56,813 nucleotides of DNA from Thermodesulfobacteriota bacterium. Its GTDB lineage: Bacteria; Desulfobacterota; Desulfobacteria; Desulfobacterales; SURF-7. A program made the position numbers. This document shows, in pieces, positions 42,001 through 51,000 of the stretch. Each line of letters begins with the position of its first letter. Position 1 is the stretch's first letter. The stretch spans positions 1-56,813 of the forward strand of contig JBMORA010000053.1 in NCBI GenBank assembly GCA_049320885.1. Direction: 5' to 3'.

Positions 42001-45000
42001 ATCAGCTGGGGCGTCAGATATCCGAGGGCCGCGCAGAAGGGGAAAATGCTCGCCAGAACGCCGAGGACTCCGGGTTGCATGCGCGGATCGTTCATCACCA
42101 AGGGCAGCAGGGCGAATACGGCAATGCTCGACATGAGCTTGTCTTCTCCGGCCACTTTGTTGCCGGCGATATGCTTGCGGTAAAGGAAAGAGCCGATCCA
42201 GGTGCCGAACAAATAGACTGCCAATAACGCGGCGAAGGAATAGGTGGCGGTTTTCAGAATCGGTGTAAAAGCCCTGATCCAAACCACCTCCATGCTGAGA
42301 GAGACAAAACCGGTCATGAAAAGAATCGAGCAGATTCGGTTCCGGTCCGTTGACGGGAGGTTTTGCTTGCCCTCTCCGCCGGCTGCGACCCCGGCCGATT
42401 CATTCTGAACGGAATACCGGTGGTTTCCGGCGAGCAGGATGGATACAATGGCGATGCTGAAATTGAGTGCGGCGGCTATGAACAGGGTTTTCTGGAAACC
42501 CAGCATTTCGATCAAGGCAATGGCCGTCGTGAGTGTGCCGAGCATGGCTCCGATCACATTGGCGAAATACAGGTAGCTGAAACTCGATTCGGATTTTGTC
42601 CCGGATTTTTTGATGAACGCCATCATGAACGGAAAGGTGAATCCCATGAAAATACACCAGGGAAGAATGGAAATCGAGATCATGACGGCGGAATGAAACA
42701 GATACCGGTAAGTATTCATTTCACCGTATCCCAACAGGACATGATTCCACATGGCGAACAAGGCGGGTACCGCGAACGCACCAAGTCCCAGAAAGGCCTC
42801 CGTTCCGGCGTACAGAAGCAGGGGCGTCCTGGTTTTCGTTGTCGTCAGCCGGTTGATCCATTTGCCGCCGGCCCATGAGCCGATGGAAAGACCCAGCATA
42901 AAGACGGATATCACCACGGATAGAACCGGGGTGATCACGCCGAAGGATGCATAGGCCATTCTGACCCATACGACCTGATACAGCAGACCGCAGAAGCCCG
43001 AAATAAGAAAGAGGACGAACAGAATTCGATAGTGGCCGACCCGCATGATGCGCTCCTGGTTGTTGGAAATTATTTCTAACATCTGTCATCCGGCAAGCCG
43101 GATATTCAGCGATTGACCCTATTGTTTTTCGGGATGAATTTCAAGCATTAGTTGGAGTCCGGATCCTGATTCGGTTCTGGATGCCGGACTTTCTTGTTCA
43201 CCGGTTCGCCGGCGGATAAATATGTTGACACGCAGGGGGTTCAGTGGGAGAAAGAATACTCAAGTTTTTTTGTGTTCAAGCGTCCATTGAAGGACATTCC
43301 AAACCGCCTGCAGGGTATTCCCGGGAGCAAAGGAGATATCGTCATGGGCAAAAGAACCGGAATGAGCCGGCTGATAGGCTTGTTTGCCATTTTGCTGGTC
43401 TGGATGCTGTGCGCCTGCACCAGCATGAAATACGGCCTTTATGAAATGGCCATCGACGGCGAACGCGCCAAGGCGGGGCTCAGCCTGAAACAAACGGCGA
43501 TCGGCGGCAAATCCATCGCTTTTCTGGAAGGCGAACGGGCGCCGGGAAAATCGAATCTGGTCCTGATTCATGGATTCGGCGCCAACAAGGACAACTGGGT
43601 GAGATTCGCCAAATTTCTCACGGACTTTTTTTATGTGGTGGCCGTGGACTTGCCGGGTCATGGGGACAGCGTCAAGGATCCGAATCTGCCTTATGATCTG
43701 GATGACCAGGTGGGTTATCTGAACGAACTCCTGGCCCAATTGGGGATCAGGGAATTCCATATTTCCGGCAATTCCATGGGCGGCGCCATCGCTGCCCTTT
43801 ACGCCGCCAGATATCCGGAACAGGTGCGATCCCTGATGCTGATGGCTCCGGGAGGCATCTATCAATATGAAAGCGACCTCACGCGTCAGCTCGCCGGAGG
43901 AAAAAACCCCCTGATCGTGACGAACGAGGATGAATTCGATGCGCTGATGGATTTTGTCCTTGAGAAAAAGCCGTTTCTGCCCTGGCCGATGACCAGCGTG
44001 ATGGCGGAAAAGGCCATGGCCAATAGACCGATCAACGAGAAAATTTTCGACGACATCCGCGGTGAGCATCGCTATCAATTCCAGGAAGAACTGAAAAAGA
44101 TCGCCGTGCCGACACTGATCATCTGGGGTCGGAAGGATCGCGTTTTGAATGTTGAAAATGCCGCGGTTTTCGAGAAACTGATCCCACGGAGCAGGAAAGT
44201 CATCCTGGAGGACATCGGCCATGTACCCATGGTCGAAGATCCGGGGGGAACGGCCGCCATTTGCCGCTTATTCATGGAAGAACACGAATCCAGCGGAAGA
44301 CCTTTGCCATAGACCTGTATAATTGATCAGAGAGGTTGACGAACATGACTTTGTGCCCCATCGCCATTGCCACCGGTTGTAAAAAATGTTGGATCGTATC
44401 GGTTTGTCCTTTGAAGGGCATTATCGGCGACTTCAAGCCCGCGGCAAATAAGAAATCCGTCGGGAAAAAAACTCCGGTCCGATCCGGAGCTTCCAGGAAA
44501 AGGAAATCCTGAGCAGTTCTGTTTTTACGTGGAATCCTTTTTTTAATCTTAATGAATTAAAAAGAATTAAAAAATCAGGAATTGCATCAGAATTCTTCTA
44601 AGGAAGAACTCTTCTGCTGATCAGGGCAGCCTATCCCTGAATACCGTGGTCGCGGAAGATGGCCTTGCAGTGACGGATCTGATCAGGACGCTGCCACTGT
44701 CGCATGACAGGAGCGAGTCCGGCTTCGGAAATGCCCAGGTTGACGGCCTTGTCCGGCCACAGGGGGTTGTAGGGGAGAAGCCTGGCCGTCTGTATTCCGG
44801 CGGCCTGCAAAAATGACGCCCACGCCCGGAGGTTCCTGTCCGTGGCGGTGATTCCCGGGATCAGGGGGATGCGCGGCAGGAGAACCTTGCCGTCTTTACG
44901 GGTCCGGGCGGCGAGGCGGCGGAAGTTTTCCAGAATGGCCCCGTTCGGGACCCCGCAGGAACGCCGGTGAGCGACCGTGTCGTGGATCTTGAGGTCGAAA

Positions 45001-48000: not shown

Positions 48001-51000
48001 GATGCTTGCGACCGGCCAGTTCCGCGGTTTTCTCTGGGATGCGGACGGGCTGCTGGGCCTTGCGCACACGCTTATCCTCGCGCTGGCTCCTGCGGAGCAT
48101 GCGTTCGTGCATTCCGCCCAGCAGCAGCGAGACATAGAAGTTGAAGAGCTGGAGGTAGGCCAGATTGCCGTCAAGGGTCATCTTGTTGTGGAGGATGAGG
48201 GTCAAGACCTCGTTGGGGGTGATGCGGAGCATTTCCATCAGGGTCCGGTCGTTGACGAAATTCAGGATGCAGTCCGTTTCATCGGGGATCCGGTCCATTA
48301 CCGAGACGCGGCCGTCCCGGAAAGCGATGGCCTGCTCCACGGTGCCGCTGCGGGTGCGGAAGCCCATGACGAAGTTGATCCAGCCGTCGCGGTTCCGGAG
48401 GTAGGGCCGCAGGCGGGGGTTGATGGTATAGGCCGCCGCCATGAGACGCAGCAGCGAGCCGCCGGCAATATTCAGGGGGGTCCATTTCATCGGCGCTTCT
48501 CCTTCTTGAATTCCCGGAAAGGCTTCATCAGATCGTCCACGATGCGATTGACTATGTCTTCCACCCGATGGTCCACCTCCTGAAGGACCCGGCTGTTCAA
48601 AAGGTTCACCAGACCGTTGAGCATGCTCCAGAGCTGGATCATCCGGAAACGGGCTTCCTCCTCGGTCACCCCCAGGGCCATGACCGCCGCCGTGGCTTTT
48701 TCCGCGGCCCGGAGGGCCGTCTGCTTTTCATGAAAAGCGGCCGGCTCCATCGCCGTTCCCACATAGTCGGCGTACTTGGGTGTGTTGCGGCTGAACATGA
48801 TCTCATAGTAGTCGGGGTTTTCCGTCCCGAAGGCGAGGTAGGCCCGGATCATTTCCTCGATGCGCTTCAGGGGGGCGGTCCGCTTCTTCCCGATTTCCTC
48901 GAAGGTCTCCGCAAGACGGGCAAAGCCCTTGGTCTGGATGAGGAGGTAGATTTCGTCCTTGTTCGTAAAGTAATTGTAGATGTTGGCGGCGGTCATGCCC
49001 AAACGGGCGCCGAGCCGGCGCATGCTGAAATGAACGAAACCATCGTCGAGAATCAGCTGGAGGGCCTCCTCCAGAATCCGATCCTTGATTTCGATGATCT
49101 TTTGCGCGTTTCGCGGCGCTTTTGGCATTGGTCCTCCCAATGATCGATGTGAATCTGTTCTAAACGATGTTCAATTAACATTGTTAAATATTAAAGTCAA
49201 GGAATTTGTCATTTGACCGTTGCCATTACAGCCCCCCTGATCTTGTTTCTTCTCTGGCGCTGCCCCTACGCTGCCTGGCCGAAAACCGTGCGGATCAGGT
49301 AGGCCGTATAGCCCACGTAACAGGCCAGCAGCATCGTGCCCTCGATGCGGTTGATACGACCCGGGGCCCGGAACCCGTAGCCGATGACGAACAGCGACAG
49401 GGTCAGCGCGGCCATCACCAGCATGTCCCGGTTGAAGACCTCCGGACCGACGGCCAGAGGGCGAATCGCACCGGCGATACCCACTACCGCCAGGGTGTTG
49501 AACAGGTTGGAACCCAGCACGTTGCCCAAGGCGATGTCATGTTCCCCCCTGCGGGTAGCGATAATTGACGAGGCCAACTCCGGCAGCGAGGTGCCCACCG
49601 CCACGATGGTCAGACCGATGATCAGGTCGCTGACCCCGAAACCATGAGCAATTTTAACCGCGCCCCAGACCAGGATGCGGGAACTCACGATGAGCAGCAC
49701 CAGACCTGCCACCAGCCAGAAGGCCGCTCGGCGGATGGGCATGGCGTGAACTTCCAGTTCCTGCGCCATTTCGCTTCCCAGCGTATCCTCTTTTTTTCGC
49801 AGCCCCTGCCAGATGGTCCAGGCCAACAGACCGCCGAACACGGTCAGCAGCACCACGGCATCGAGCCGGGTGATCTTCCCATCCCGGAGTTGCCATGCCG
49901 CCAGGGCGGTGACCATCGTGAGGATCGGCAGTTCCTTGCGCAAGACCTGCGAATGCACTGCAATCGGGCTGATAAGCGCGGTGAGCCCCAGGATCAGGGC
50001 AATGTTGGTGATATTCGAGCCGTAGGCGTTGCCCAGAGCAATGCCCGGATTGCCCTGCGAGGCGGCTATGGCCGAAACCAGCATTTCCGGCGTCGAAGTG
50101 CCGAACCCGACGATCACCATGCCGATCAGCAGCGGCGGCATGCCGAAATGCCGGGCAGTGGAGGCCGAGCCCTCCACAAAACGGTCCGCGCTCCAGACGA
50201 GAAGCGCCAAACCAAAGATTACAGCGATAAAGGCAAGTGTCATACGGCACCTTTTTGTCCGGTAAGACTTCTGATCAGCTTTGCGACATAATCCCGCAGG
50301 TGGTTGTACCACGCCTTCAACTTGTTTTTGATGGTGGCCAGCAGGTTTTCTTGGGTTTCCTCGACGGAAAGGGCCTTGCCTTGAATCTGCAGGTTTATTC
50401 TTTCGGCCCGGAGAGCCGGATCGGGATGGCTGGAAAGGAAGGAATGGCCGCTGCCCAGGCCGGCAAGTTTGTTCAGGGCCGCAACCGCAGACTCCGGCGC
50501 ATGACCCTGCACCTTGAGGAAGGACAGGCCATAGTCATCGGCCACCTTTTCCTCGAGTTGCGAGAATTGCGCCCTCATAAACCTTTCGACCAGTCCTCCC
50601 AGTTGGGAGCGGGCAATATCGGCCGTTTCGCCCTGTTGGGCCGCTATGCCCTTGCGCACGGCGCTGGCGGCATAGGCTATGCGCAACTGTTTGCGGCTAT
50701 GCTGTTTTACGATATGCCCCATTTCATGGCCGATCACAAATCGCAGCTCGCCATCATCGAGCATATCCATCAGGCCGCTGAAGATCCGGATAGAACCGTC
50801 CGCCATGGCAAAGGCGTTCACTTCGTCGTGCAAATACACCTTGTAATTGAAGATGTAGCCATCCTGCTCATGCAGATCGCCAACCAAGGCCCGTAAGCGT
50901 TTGGCATAGTGATTCTCGGCCGGAGCAACCGGCTGCCTGCTGTCCATGAGGACCGATGATTTCCTGGCCAGTTCCGCCACCGCCTGGTCGGAAAGGGTGA

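Follow-up and report, generated by a model that had tools for sequence, protein, structure and literature searches.

Which substrate is handled by a glycyl radical enzyme (GRE) that begins with a domain resembling sterol carrier protein 2 (SCP2)? The question is raised by an operon in the window analysed here, the 56,813-nucleotide contig JBMORA010000053.1 of a Thermodesulfobacteriota bacterium. A first-pass annotation had placed there a GRE of 983 residues, of a family usually found behind a TetR/GntR regulator; three genes fill the interval that it gave, on the minus strand from 49128 to 44631, in the order TetR, GRE, activase and joined by 4-base stop/start overlaps (ATGA, then GTGA). The features of the locus are the following.

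49128-48487, minus strand: TetR-family regulator, 213 aa (Pfam TetR_N and TetR_C_33 above cut-off)
48490-45539, minus strand: GRE P0001, 983 aa, subfamily A of the SCP2-associated clade (Pfam PF02901 and PF01228)
45542-44631, minus strand: GRE-activating radical SAM enzyme, 303 aa (TIGR02494, 274 bits against a cut-off of 174)
48107-48478, minus strand: SCP2-fold domain, GRE residues about 3-126 (fold and profile searches)
47429-47449, minus strand: Lys348...His354 (K-x5-H-T) of the GRE (alignment to glycerol dehydratase)
46607-46615, minus strand: Cys loop Cys626-Val-Glu628 with the CXE motif (aligned with Cys433/Glu435 of glycerol dehydratase)
45614-45616, minus strand: Gly959 in RISGY, radical-storage glycine (aligned with Gly763 of glycerol dehydratase)
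49195-49200, minus strand: TTGACT, predicted -35 element of the operon promoter
49162-49187, no strand: tandem palindromic operator (AACRNYGTT half-sites at 49187-49175 and 49172-49162)
43194-44312, plus strand: alpha/beta-hydrolase gene convergent to the operon (Pfam Abhydrolase_1)

P0001 belongs to the oxygen-sensitive GRE superfamily: its PFL-like (202-845) and Gly_radical (862-965) domains are above the Pfam cut-offs, Gly959 lies in RISGY, Cys626 is in place, and its model (pLDDT 88, pTM 0.90) matches glycerol dehydratase 1r8w, a ten-stranded barrel, in Foldseek with a TM of 0.93 over the target. The adjacent gene, which passes TIGR02494 and encodes CX3CX2C plus two ferredoxin-type cysteine clusters, supplies the dedicated radical SAM activase, and falls under the cut-off on all substrate-specific activase models. 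The GRE itself, as had been reported, is below every named GRE cut-off, all 13 NCBIfam GRE matches being under threshold (best PFL2-3, 474 against 678 bits). The CXE motif that defines GRE eliminases and isomerases (PMC13450708, sections 5.6 and 5.7) is present as C626-V-E628. Counted over 279 family sequences, its Cys and Glu are each kept in 274, the Lys348 position is K in 276, the His354 position is H in 274, and Gly959 is kept in 269, seven of the remaining rows being truncated sequences. His354 aligns with His164 of glycerol dehydratase, and Lys348 is clade-specific, being missing from all seven reference GREs. The catalytic set Cys626/Glu628/His354/Gly959 is intact and of the eliminase type, with activity predicted from sequence.

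Comparison with characterized GREs sets P0001 apart from each of them. The earlier label PflD-like is a loose one, since the E. coli PflD model gives 320 bits against 1109 (NF007437); the best solved relatives, each at ~29% identity, are CutC, A. fulgidus PFL2 and glycerol dehydratase. The A. fulgidus PFL2/PflD (2f3o, the third-best sequence match), E. coli PflD and YbiW isomerases are CXE-type GREs like P0001, at about 25-29% identity, but have no SCP2 domain; the substrates of PflD and YbiW are anhydrohexitol phosphates (PMC13450708). The B12-independent glycerol dehydratase of C. butyricum (1r8w) and the GRE 1,2-propanediol dehydratase (5i2g, 9rcp) share their barrel (TM 0.91-0.93 over the target), the Gly loop, the CXE motif and the strand-1 His with P0001, which is 29% identical to glycerol dehydratase, falls in a separate clade and has an extra 190 N-terminal residues with the SCP2 domain. 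Aligned to the 787-aa C. butyricum enzyme, with numbering checked, P0001 has Thr464, Gly465, Asp531, Gly640, Trp836 and Met in place of His281, Ser282, Tyr339, Asp447, Tyr640 and Ser642, so that four bulky pocket residues (His281, Ser282, Tyr339, Asp447) are lost; identity as a glycerol/propanediol dehydratase was rejected, His281, Asp447, the aromatic at 339 and Tyr640 being the residues around the diol in those enzymes. CutC, the choline trimethylamine-lyase and a C-N 1,2-eliminase, is the best PDB sequence match and shares CXE, the TGLS strand-2 motif and Thr639, whereas in P0001 positions 531 and 643 lack the cage aromatics, the strand-1 Asp of CutC is replaced by His354, and the CutC model gives 363 against 1050 bits. 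HypD (Asp278, Asp339 and Phe340 becoming Thr464, Ser530 and Asp531; 393 against 1100 bits), the sulfonate lyases/dehydratases IslA, HpsG and HpfG (356 and 341 against 1000 bits) and pyruvate formate-lyase (a single Cys, GCVE, versus two adjacent cysteines; TIGR01255, 121 against 994 bits) were likewise rejected.

The N-terminal domain has the SCP2 fold and misses the Pfam gathering score. The earlier remark that Pfam misses the domain holds: with PF02036 the first 140 residues alone reach only 12.3 bits, and the protein 12.3-12.5, against a cut-off of 21.3; among family relatives, 55 of 79 N termini match the same model at E <= 1 (best 4.2e-6). A model of residues 1-130 built on a 79-row alignment (pLDDT 83.8) reproduced the Foldseek match to UbiJ-SCP2 (E 2.5e-6, TM 0.62/0.69; previously 1.4e-6 and 0.71), and a second structural search, independent of Foldseek, gave Z 12.0 to human SCP2, the top ten among 48,161 chains all being SCP2 domains. 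The profile's PDB matches, described before as SCP2 only, are SCP2 for the best three (E 0.3), the fourth (E 1.3) being unrelated. The SCP2 domains of human SCP2, UbiJ, the SdsA1/YjcS C terminus and MFE-2 superpose with Z 8-12 and rmsd 2.8-3.7 A over 100-119 residues at 9-19% identity, and provide precedent for fusion with enzymes of greasy substrates (e.g. the alkylsulfatase SdsA1/YjcS). No description of an SCP2 domain on a GRE was found in the literature searched.

The module occurs throughout a GRE clade, fused to the N or the C terminus or encoded by a gene of its own 3' of the enzyme, and these three architectures lie within one clade (SH-aLRT 100). For example, a separate SCP2 gene stands 3' of the GRE in 78 of 87 sister-clade loci, and its product is homologous to the N-terminal domain (hhalign 99.0%, E 3.2e-18). 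The census in the first-pass annotation (20 of 151 Desulfobacterales, frames of about 1000 aa, a domain running into the GRE) was borne out: the N-terminal profile matches 25 of 151 genomes of the order, 20 of them with 31 strong matches, 29 of which lie in frames of 989-1074 aa, and domain and GRE share a frame in 76 of 79 named-genome loci, the other three ending at a contig end. Databases still call family members 'formate acetyltransferase'. Hosts include Smithella, Desulfatibacillum and Desulfatiferula, and we take the hosts of the family to be lipid degraders. The fold, the persistence of the module in three architectures, the lipid-catabolic neighbours described below and the lipid-degrading hosts support the view that this GRE has a genuine SCP2-fold domain and a long-chain lipid as its substrate, lipid binding by the modelled domain being putative. 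Of the proposal of a lipid or acyl-CoA substrate, the lipid part is thus supported, if unproven, and nothing was found pointing to acyl-CoA in particular.

Regulation and gene neighbourhood narrow the choice. Of 80 loci, 50 have a TetR homologue 5' of the GRE, and in a count by subfamily the upstream regulator is TetR in 14 of 24 loci of A and 33 of 53 of B, so the TetR half of the suggested TetR/GntR regulator holds; a GntR/FadR probe of the family loci returned one locus only. The motif AACRNYGTT occurs in 50 of the 56 regions compared upstream of TetR, where shuffled sequences gave 1.5 on average and 5 at most, and the strict tandem operator, a single copy across the 5.6-Mb genome, overlies the promoter spacer and -10 region and is the probable TetR site. 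TTGAC precedes the operator at equal spacing in most of the 56 regions; a strict promoter-consensus scan did not return the TTGACT element. The alpha/beta-hydrolase, a possible lipid hydrolase, has an uncertain tie to the operon, homologues adjoining the GRE in just 5 of 80 loci. In subfamily B, whose GRE is 64% identical to P0001, 26 of 53 loci have an SDR no more than 5 kb away; in subfamily D, the same distance takes in aldehyde:ferredoxin oxidoreductase (AOR) in 20 and enoyl-CoA hydratase in 12 of 51 loci; in subfamily A, that of the window, no SDR was found in 24 loci and AOR in one. The name '3-dehydrosphinganine reductase' is borne by 22 of 120 listed homologues of the subfamily B SDR and is the sole specific name among them. 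Among PDB entries, the C-terminal half of this SDR finds its best single-domain match in the 3-ketodihydrosphingosine reductase (KDSR) TSC10 (8jat, E 6.8e-11, 39.5 bits over residues 2-102), making KDSR the closest solved relative in the substrate-binding half; 2et6 has a higher total only by summing two short catalytic-motif matches. Against the NCBIfam KdsR cut-off the SDR gives 136 of 400 bits, and generic SDR models score higher.

These SDR names, the TSC10 match and the ceramidase pattern point more narrowly to a sphingoid long-chain base. Co-occurrence with neutral ceramidase was predicted beforehand from the sphingoid reading and then tested genome by genome, the counts including related, non-independent genomes. 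In the window's order, 9 of the 20 genomes with the enzyme also have ceramidase (six families), against 1 of the 131 others; in a second order the figures are 3 of 7 and 0 of 114, so that 12 of 13 ceramidase-positive genomes across the two orders carry the GRE. Ceramidase occurs in 23 of 50 genomes behind the named loci. It was not detected in 11 of the 20 and 27 of the 50, all six Asgard genomes among them, many of these genomes being incomplete, and no ceramidase gene lies in any GRE locus examined. The controls track the GRE far less: lipase-3 is found in 2 of 20 versus 23 of 131, and alkylsulfatase in 13 of 20 versus 22 of 131 (second order, 2 of 7 versus 14 of 114). Alkylsulfatase is nevertheless enriched in the window's order (odds ratio 9), and part of the ceramidase signal therefore reflects a general lipid-scavenger lifestyle; among alkylsulfatase-positive genomes only, ceramidase is still present in 7 of 13 versus 1 of 22. 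The window's genome has a ceramidase match of 551 bits (NCBIfam neutral ceramidase, 454 against 1200), many of the other matches being distant (100-130 bits), together with a fused extended/KDSR-like SDR and an AOR-KDSR-like operon. Sphingosine-1-phosphate lyase was not detected there, the only PF00282 protein being a decarboxylase; a true lyase did turn up by this search in another genome, which has both the GRE and the canonical enzyme.

Our analyses tentatively suggest, at somewhat short of even chances, that the operon encodes a radical enzyme carrying out 1,2-elimination on a lipid with a long chain, and that this lipid is most likely a sphingoid base (sphinganine, phytosphingosine or sphingosine) released when scavenged ceramide is cleaved, a reading whose substrate evidence is all by association. 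By analogy with other GREs, the activase would install the radical on Gly959, and Cys626 would abstract H from the carbinol carbon, whose OH would be held by Glu628, so that the group on the next carbon leaves to give an aldehyde or ketone; from its anatomy, the SCP2 module may take the greasy substrate from membranes and hold or gate its tail at the enzyme. In subfamily B, loss of water at C3/C4 of phytosphingosine would yield 3-ketosphinganine, reduced by the KDSR-like SDR. In subfamily D, loss of NH3 from C2 would give 3-hydroxyoctadecanal, consumed by AOR and beta-oxidation enzymes; CutC provides a precedent for deamination of an amino alcohol to an aldehyde (PMC13450708). Both reactions fit the partner genes, and either may be that of subfamily A; His354 favours water over ammonia as the predicted leaving group. 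The known breakdown of long-chain bases to fatty aldehyde by sphingosine kinase and sphingosine-1-phosphate lyase, as described in PMC6148460, is a PLP retro-aldol reaction on the phosphorylated base, in contrast to the radical elimination proposed for the GRE.

The same eliminase and lipid carrier might instead act on another long-chain vicinal diol (1-O-alkylglycerol, monoacylglycerol, 1,2-alkanediol or dihydroxy fatty acid) with the product passing to AOR or the SDR pair, which we consider unlikely but worth keeping in view. The closest folds are the glycerol and propanediol dehydratases, alkylsulfatase is enriched as well, and acyl-CoA dehydrogenase and ligase genes, with hydrolases in a few loci, join AOR and enoyl-CoA hydratase as neighbours. 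For the fused SDR pair the top-scoring model is PRK07201 (180-188 against 549 bits), presumably a fatty acyl-CoA/aldehyde reductase architecture. His354 corresponds to the residue suggested as proton donor to the departing hydroxyl (PMC13450708), and Lys348 could hold a carboxylate. Such a diol leaves the KDSR-like SDR unexplained and does not account for 12 of 13 ceramidase-positive genomes having the GRE while lipase-3 is unlinked. Lys348, invariant and near the pocket by alignment, would pair more readily with an anion than with an ammonium group and counts against a sphingoid base; it might anchor an anionic analogue, either the sulfonolipid base capnine or a long-chain-base phosphate. Basic residues do so in sulfonate lyases (PMC13450708), and a 3-ketocapnine reductase is described in PMC11211663, but no sulfonate or kinase gene was seen in the loci and the IslA/HpsG arginines were not recognised in the GRE, making this quite improbable.

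That the SCP2 module serves as a small subunit with a structural or gating role, like the channel-blocking ones of benzylsuccinate synthase, and that the substrate is small or not a lipid, seems improbable to us, if less so. It exists as a separate gene in the sister clade, like small subunits, which gate the substrate channel in GREs (PMC13450708, section 4.3); its SCP2 sequence signal is weak, the fold recurs in GNAT acetyltransferases (Z 5-6.7), and the split clade, found in Acidobacteria, Nitrospirae and Planctomycetes, has different neighbours (metallophosphoesterases and unknown proteins). The N-fused subfamilies, on the other hand, adjoin KDSR-like SDR, AOR and beta-oxidation genes and track ceramidase, and alternating hydrophobic core positions are kept over 79 rows, although this is expected of any folded domain. 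Hydrocarbon activation by fumarate addition, with SCP2 carrying the hydrocarbon, would suit alkane/alkene degraders such as the hosts named above, and GREs of Asgard archaea with distant similarity to A. fulgidus PflD were interpreted as Ass/Bss in PMC8163825. It is nonetheless highly improbable, as the CXE motif is of the eliminase type, benzyl-/alkylsuccinate synthases score far under eliminases in both sequence and fold, near the bottom of the matches (161-208 bits versus 356-372), and no succinate-synthase accessory genes recur in the loci among ORFs of at least 80 aa.

The N-fused SCP2-GRE family may, with slightly less assurance than for the operon itself, represent an O2-independent radical breakdown of sphingoid bases. 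It would then be the first case of a GRE whose substrate is a membrane lipid, and the SCP2 module, whether free or joined to one end of the enzyme, would be a GRE subunit of a new type. Some paralogues would dehydrate and others deaminate, in hosts that range over sulfate reducers, syntrophs, spirochaetes, actinobacteria and Asgard archaea. In a June 2026 review of GREs, eliminase and isomerase substrates are all small and water-soluble, and SCP2, sterol and fusion go unmentioned (PMC13450708). Should this clade indeed have a lipid-carrier subunit, GREs would gain one substrate class and one subunit type, and hundreds of 'formate acetyltransferase' genes, possibly also some 'hydrocarbon-activating' enzymes of Asgard archaea, would have been misread. 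To our knowledge, no GRE has a known role in anaerobic breakdown of the sphingoid backbone. From an ecological point of view, were the substrate a sphingoid base, the enzyme would yield a short, directly testable substrate list and be a candidate for the anoxic consumption of ceramide from dead eukaryotic and bacterial cells in sediments and digesters by organisms without the kinase/lyase route.

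The glycyl radical enzyme (GRE) P0001 is encoded in a three-gene operon whose TetR, GRE, and activase genes are joined by 4-base stop/start overlaps.

49187-49175 and 49172-49162, operator half-sites upstream of the TetR gene, the sole strict tandem in the genome
49128-48487, minus strand, TetR gene, first gene of the operon
48490-45539, minus strand, glycyl radical enzyme of 983 aa (P0001), second gene
45542-44631, minus strand, GRE activase of 303 aa, third gene

The core of P0001 (residues 202-965) passes the Pfam match, and the enzyme indeed lies under all named GRE cut-offs, as the first-pass annotation had stated, with 13 of 13 NCBIfam GRE models falling short; the activase is above the cut-off for the generic GRE-activase model only. 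Upstream of the TetR gene, the motif AACRNYGTT, usually in two copies directly after a TTGAC, occurs in 50 of 56 regions (shuffled mean 1.5, maximum 5). A strict promoter scan did not pick up the operon promoter, and an RNA search (one run, share 0.05) was not taken as evidence. The operon appears to be autoregulated and ligand-inducible and is therefore probably catabolic. Of the TetR/GntR regulator previously ascribed to the family, TetR is the rule but GntR is not. Four close TetR paralogues are found elsewhere in the genome (L253:7069-9785, L254:8543-9178, L256:3342-4004, and L257:4752-5414), of which the one at L253 has the same operator and lies upstream of ferredoxin-like and DUF6989 genes, and the one at L254 has as its neighbors FGGY kinase genes and one resembling glycerol-3-phosphate dehydrogenase.

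The sterol-carrier-protein-2 (SCP2) fold of the N-terminal domain, proposed in the first-pass annotation, can be considered settled. Foldseek with a model of residues 1-130 retrieved UbiJ-SCP2 (E 2.5e-6) and alkylsulfatase SCP2 domains, and a second structural comparison, independent of the first and run over 48,161 chains, put SCP2 domains in the top ten places (Z 12.0-8.1), with GNAT proteins that share the fold next (Z at most 6.7); an Atlas search agrees. Of the 79 family N termini, 55 reach E <= 1 against SCP2, the best at 4.2e-6; any other family takes at most 6. Pfam itself makes no SCP2 call, as had been noted, the domain of P0001 alone scoring 12.3 bits, under the cut-off. Fused and free SCP2-type domains are homologous (99.0%, E 3.2e-18), and the domain presumably binds lipid. 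The earlier claim that this region runs into the GRE also stands: a search with residues 1-170 found 67 proteins, all 67 with a PFL-like domain, and in the best 79 of 270 stretches of species-representative genomes encoding relatives (hosts including Smithella, Desulfobacterales, spirochaetes, and Actinomycetota), the SCP2 domain is in the GRE frame at 76 loci, the remaining 3 ending at a contig edge. The reported occurrence in 20 of 151 Desulfobacterales genomes was reproduced, with 31 strong matches, 29 of them in frames near 1000 aa. No member was present among 57 matches in a plasmid search (best 31.8% identity), none of which covers the N-terminal 165 residues.

A profile search over 1.84 billion representatives extended the family in two directions. 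P0232 marks subfamily D, which is common in Asgard archaea and also occurs in Desulfatibacillum alkenivorans and Syntrophomonas, and P0284 is the end of a GRE followed by an SCP2 domain, its relatives forming a sister clade to the N-fused enzymes (subfamilies A, B, and D). At 78 of the 87 loci of this clade, a count biased by the 80 loci that came from a domain-containing query, the SCP2 domain is a separate gene of 138-190 aa just downstream of the GRE (808 + 155 aa in the pair at L162); it is fused C-terminally in 6, and the contig runs out in the other 3. Each of the 7 loci retrieved with only the GRE part has the split arrangement. In a quick IQ-TREE of 34 chosen rows, with which a FastTree of 70 rows is in agreement, the N-fused enzymes pair as sisters with the split/C-fused ones, and the branch that unites them (SH-aLRT 100, length 0.77) is separate from CutC, HypD, glycerol dehydratase (GD), propanediol dehydratase, YbiW, PflD, and the five other GREs of the genome; succinate synthase and A. 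fulgidus PFL2 were outside the taxon set. Consistent with the first-pass annotation, the literature covered, with limited subscription access and supplements outside its scope, held nothing on an SCP2-fused GRE, nor on a GRE for sphingoid bases or ether lipids, although the genes might be listed, generically named, in supplementary tables of GRE clusters or proteomes. The accessible part of a 2026 GRE review contains none of the words "SCP2," "sterol," or "fusion" (PMC13450708), and the available portions of PMC12583861 and PMC8163825 deal with other GREs. The Hermodarchaeota genes published as "Ass/Bss" are possible members of the family.

The AlphaFold model of P0001 (63 relatives, pLDDT 88) has glycerol dehydratase as its best fold match (TM 0.93 over the target, 29% identity). 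By alignment, His354, Cys626, Glu628, and Gly959 correspond to GD His164, Cys433, Glu435, and Gly763, the numbering having been verified against the C. butyricum protein of 787 aa. According to the accessible text of PMC13450708, the CXE motif is kept in all eliminases and isomerases, its Glu binding the substrate hydroxyl, and GD His164 protonates the leaving hydroxyl. Cut-offs together with residues, those of HypD being taken from the available part of PMC7077986, rule out PFL, PflD, CutC, HypD, HpsG/HpfG, and decarboxylase identities and make a succinate-synthase identity unlikely. Unlike in GD, smaller side chains occupy four positions (Thr464, Gly465, Asp531, and Gly640), which, judging by the alignment, may make space for a long tail. 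Lys348, Asp512-His513, Trp836, and His841 are near-invariant over 279 sequences from all subfamilies. Tandem copies of the enzyme occur at three loci (L012, L056, and L063). Two full-length relatives, P0200 and P0227, have neither the catalytic Cys nor the radical Gly and are possibly inactive partner subunits, and two others, P0202 and P0213, have Glu at the His354 position and Asp at 464-465, which suggests a different chemistry, perhaps with an amine leaving group.

Partner genes, counted within 5 kb of the GRE at loci some of which may be incomplete, differ between subfamilies. Short-chain dehydrogenases/reductases (SDRs) are near 26 of 53 subfamily B loci, whereas aldehyde:ferredoxin oxidoreductase (AOR) is near 20 and enoyl-CoA hydratase near 12 of 51 subfamily D loci, one of which (L188) carries the run acyl-CoA ligase, hydratase, AOR, acyl-CoA dehydrogenase, GRE. 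Subfamily A, to which P0001 belongs, has almost nothing nearby except TetR (14/24) and the activase (8/24). At 20 further loci of enzyme-positive genomes, five of them duplicates of loci already counted, a classical SDR lies beside 8 of 12 B-type versus 0 of 4 A-type enzymes. In sequence this classical SDR looks like 3-ketosphinganine reductase (KDSR), the source name on 22 of 120 listed homologues (the others having generic names or none); for its C-terminal half, the top single-domain match in the PDB is TSC10. Against this, the SDR misses the NCBIfam KdsR cut-off. The extended SDR resembles HpnA, OleD, and SdmB, all far under cut-off. Split-clade enzymes neighbor phosphoesterases and unknown proteins; at L087-L166, calcineurin-like phosphoesterases, DUF6765, and two unknown families recur, one of ~200 aa and one of ~590 aa that also comes in two parts of 320 + 350 aa; the commonest unknown neighbor gave only a weak GXWXG/DUF4334 lead in an Atlas search (0.78). 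Immediately 5' of one TetR/SCP2-GRE operon lies a 1117-aa fusion of an N-terminal radical SAM domain to a GRE (L038:5542-8895).

Several other loci deserve mention. The genome's second SCP2-like match, a free 118-aa protein, belongs to a separate operon on contig C27 with no adjoining GRE (L080:2015-7895), together with TetR, a Zn-dependent dehydrogenase, and a ThDP enzyme like 2-hydroxyacyl-CoA lyase, and these genes face a 580-aa BioF/SPT-like PLP enzyme, all under named cut-offs. None of the five further GREs (L082-L086) is above a named cut-off, one being just under HpsG (992 versus 1000 bits), and three adjoin GntR/FadR-type regulators; the nearest outside relative of one of the five is a plasmid-borne GRE, accompanied by an activase, from the aerobes Acinetobacter and Moraxella (L250:4887-8262). 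On contig C24, a hydrolase, an AMP-ligase, and a 3-beta-HSD-like reductase are consecutive (L255:2220-6445), which we take to be the oleBCD pattern of olefin biosynthesis. At 36770-39142 the window also encodes a DUF4388-containing response regulator and, after it, two small proteins that have no Pfam match and resemble roadblock/MglB proteins; 39741-43082 holds an Acyltransferase-3 gene together with one for a membrane protein of 753 aa to which a spermidine-synthase domain is fused; and a 1271-aa ORF at 51600-55415 has no Pfam match at E 1e-5. In the ORF list, 51291-51500 and 55483-55776 share one short peptide sequence whose end is a REP-tyrosine-transposase-like remnant, probably a repeated mobile fragment.

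If sphingoid bases were the substrate, hosts would be expected to have a ceramidase, and this prediction was tested. Ceramidase (PF04734) occurs in 10 of 151 Desulfobacterales genomes, 9 of them, from six families, among the 20 enzyme-positive; in a second order, the one containing a Syntrophaceae host (its centre genome was picked because it has the enzyme), it occurs in 3 of 121 genomes, all among the 7 enzyme-positive. Of the 50 genomes behind named loci, 23 have it (B 15/28, A 5/11, D 3/11, Asgard 0/6). A KDSR-like SDR (16 candidates scored per genome) is found in 14 of 20 enzyme-positive versus 8 of 131 other genomes. As controls, lipase-3 occurs in 2/20 versus 23/131, and alkylsulfatase in 13/20 versus 22/131 (2/7 versus 14/114 in the Syntrophaceae host's order). 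The odds ratios are 106 for ceramidase, 36 for the KDSR-like SDR, 0.5 for lipase-3, and 9 for alkylsulfatase, with p-values that overstate the significance because related genomes are not independent; among alkylsulfatase-positive genomes only, ceramidase is still in 7 of 13 enzyme-positive versus 1 of 22. Endoglycoceramidase (PF18564), in 1 of 151 genomes (G043, enzyme-positive), is too rare to count. The P0001 genome (98% complete) encodes, on other contigs, a ceramidase, an extended SDR fused to a KDSR-like one, and an operon pairing AOR with a KDSR-like SDR; a ceramidase gene is absent from every GRE locus examined. The known exit route for sphingoid bases requires sphingosine-1-phosphate lyase, according to the available part of PMC6148460. 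A PF00282 search of five genomes found a single protein in the P0001 genome, a decarboxylase, a true sphingosine-1-phosphate lyase in G043, and one similar-scoring match, not checked singly, in each of the other three.

P0001 is very likely an active eliminase-type GRE. Its substrate is probably a long-chain lipid, and a neutral sphingoid base is a tentative choice; because subfamily A has no telling neighbor, this substrate is extrapolated from genome content and from the sister subfamily, with which P0001 shares 64% identity, and this is the weak point of the assignment. After installation of the glycyl radical, the enzyme would abstract a hydrogen from the carbinol, and 1,2-elimination would follow. 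Guided by the partner genes, one may imagine phytosphingosine being converted to 3-ketosphinganine, which the KDSR-like SDR would then take; alternatively, sphinganine would yield ammonia and 3-hydroxyoctadecanal, with AOR and beta-oxidation downstream. The SCP2-associated enzymes constitute a genuine GRE clade, so far uncharacterised, whose partner domain is of a new kind, and because positions 464, 531, 640, and 838-840 are subfamily-specific, the substrates of its paralogues are probably related without being identical.
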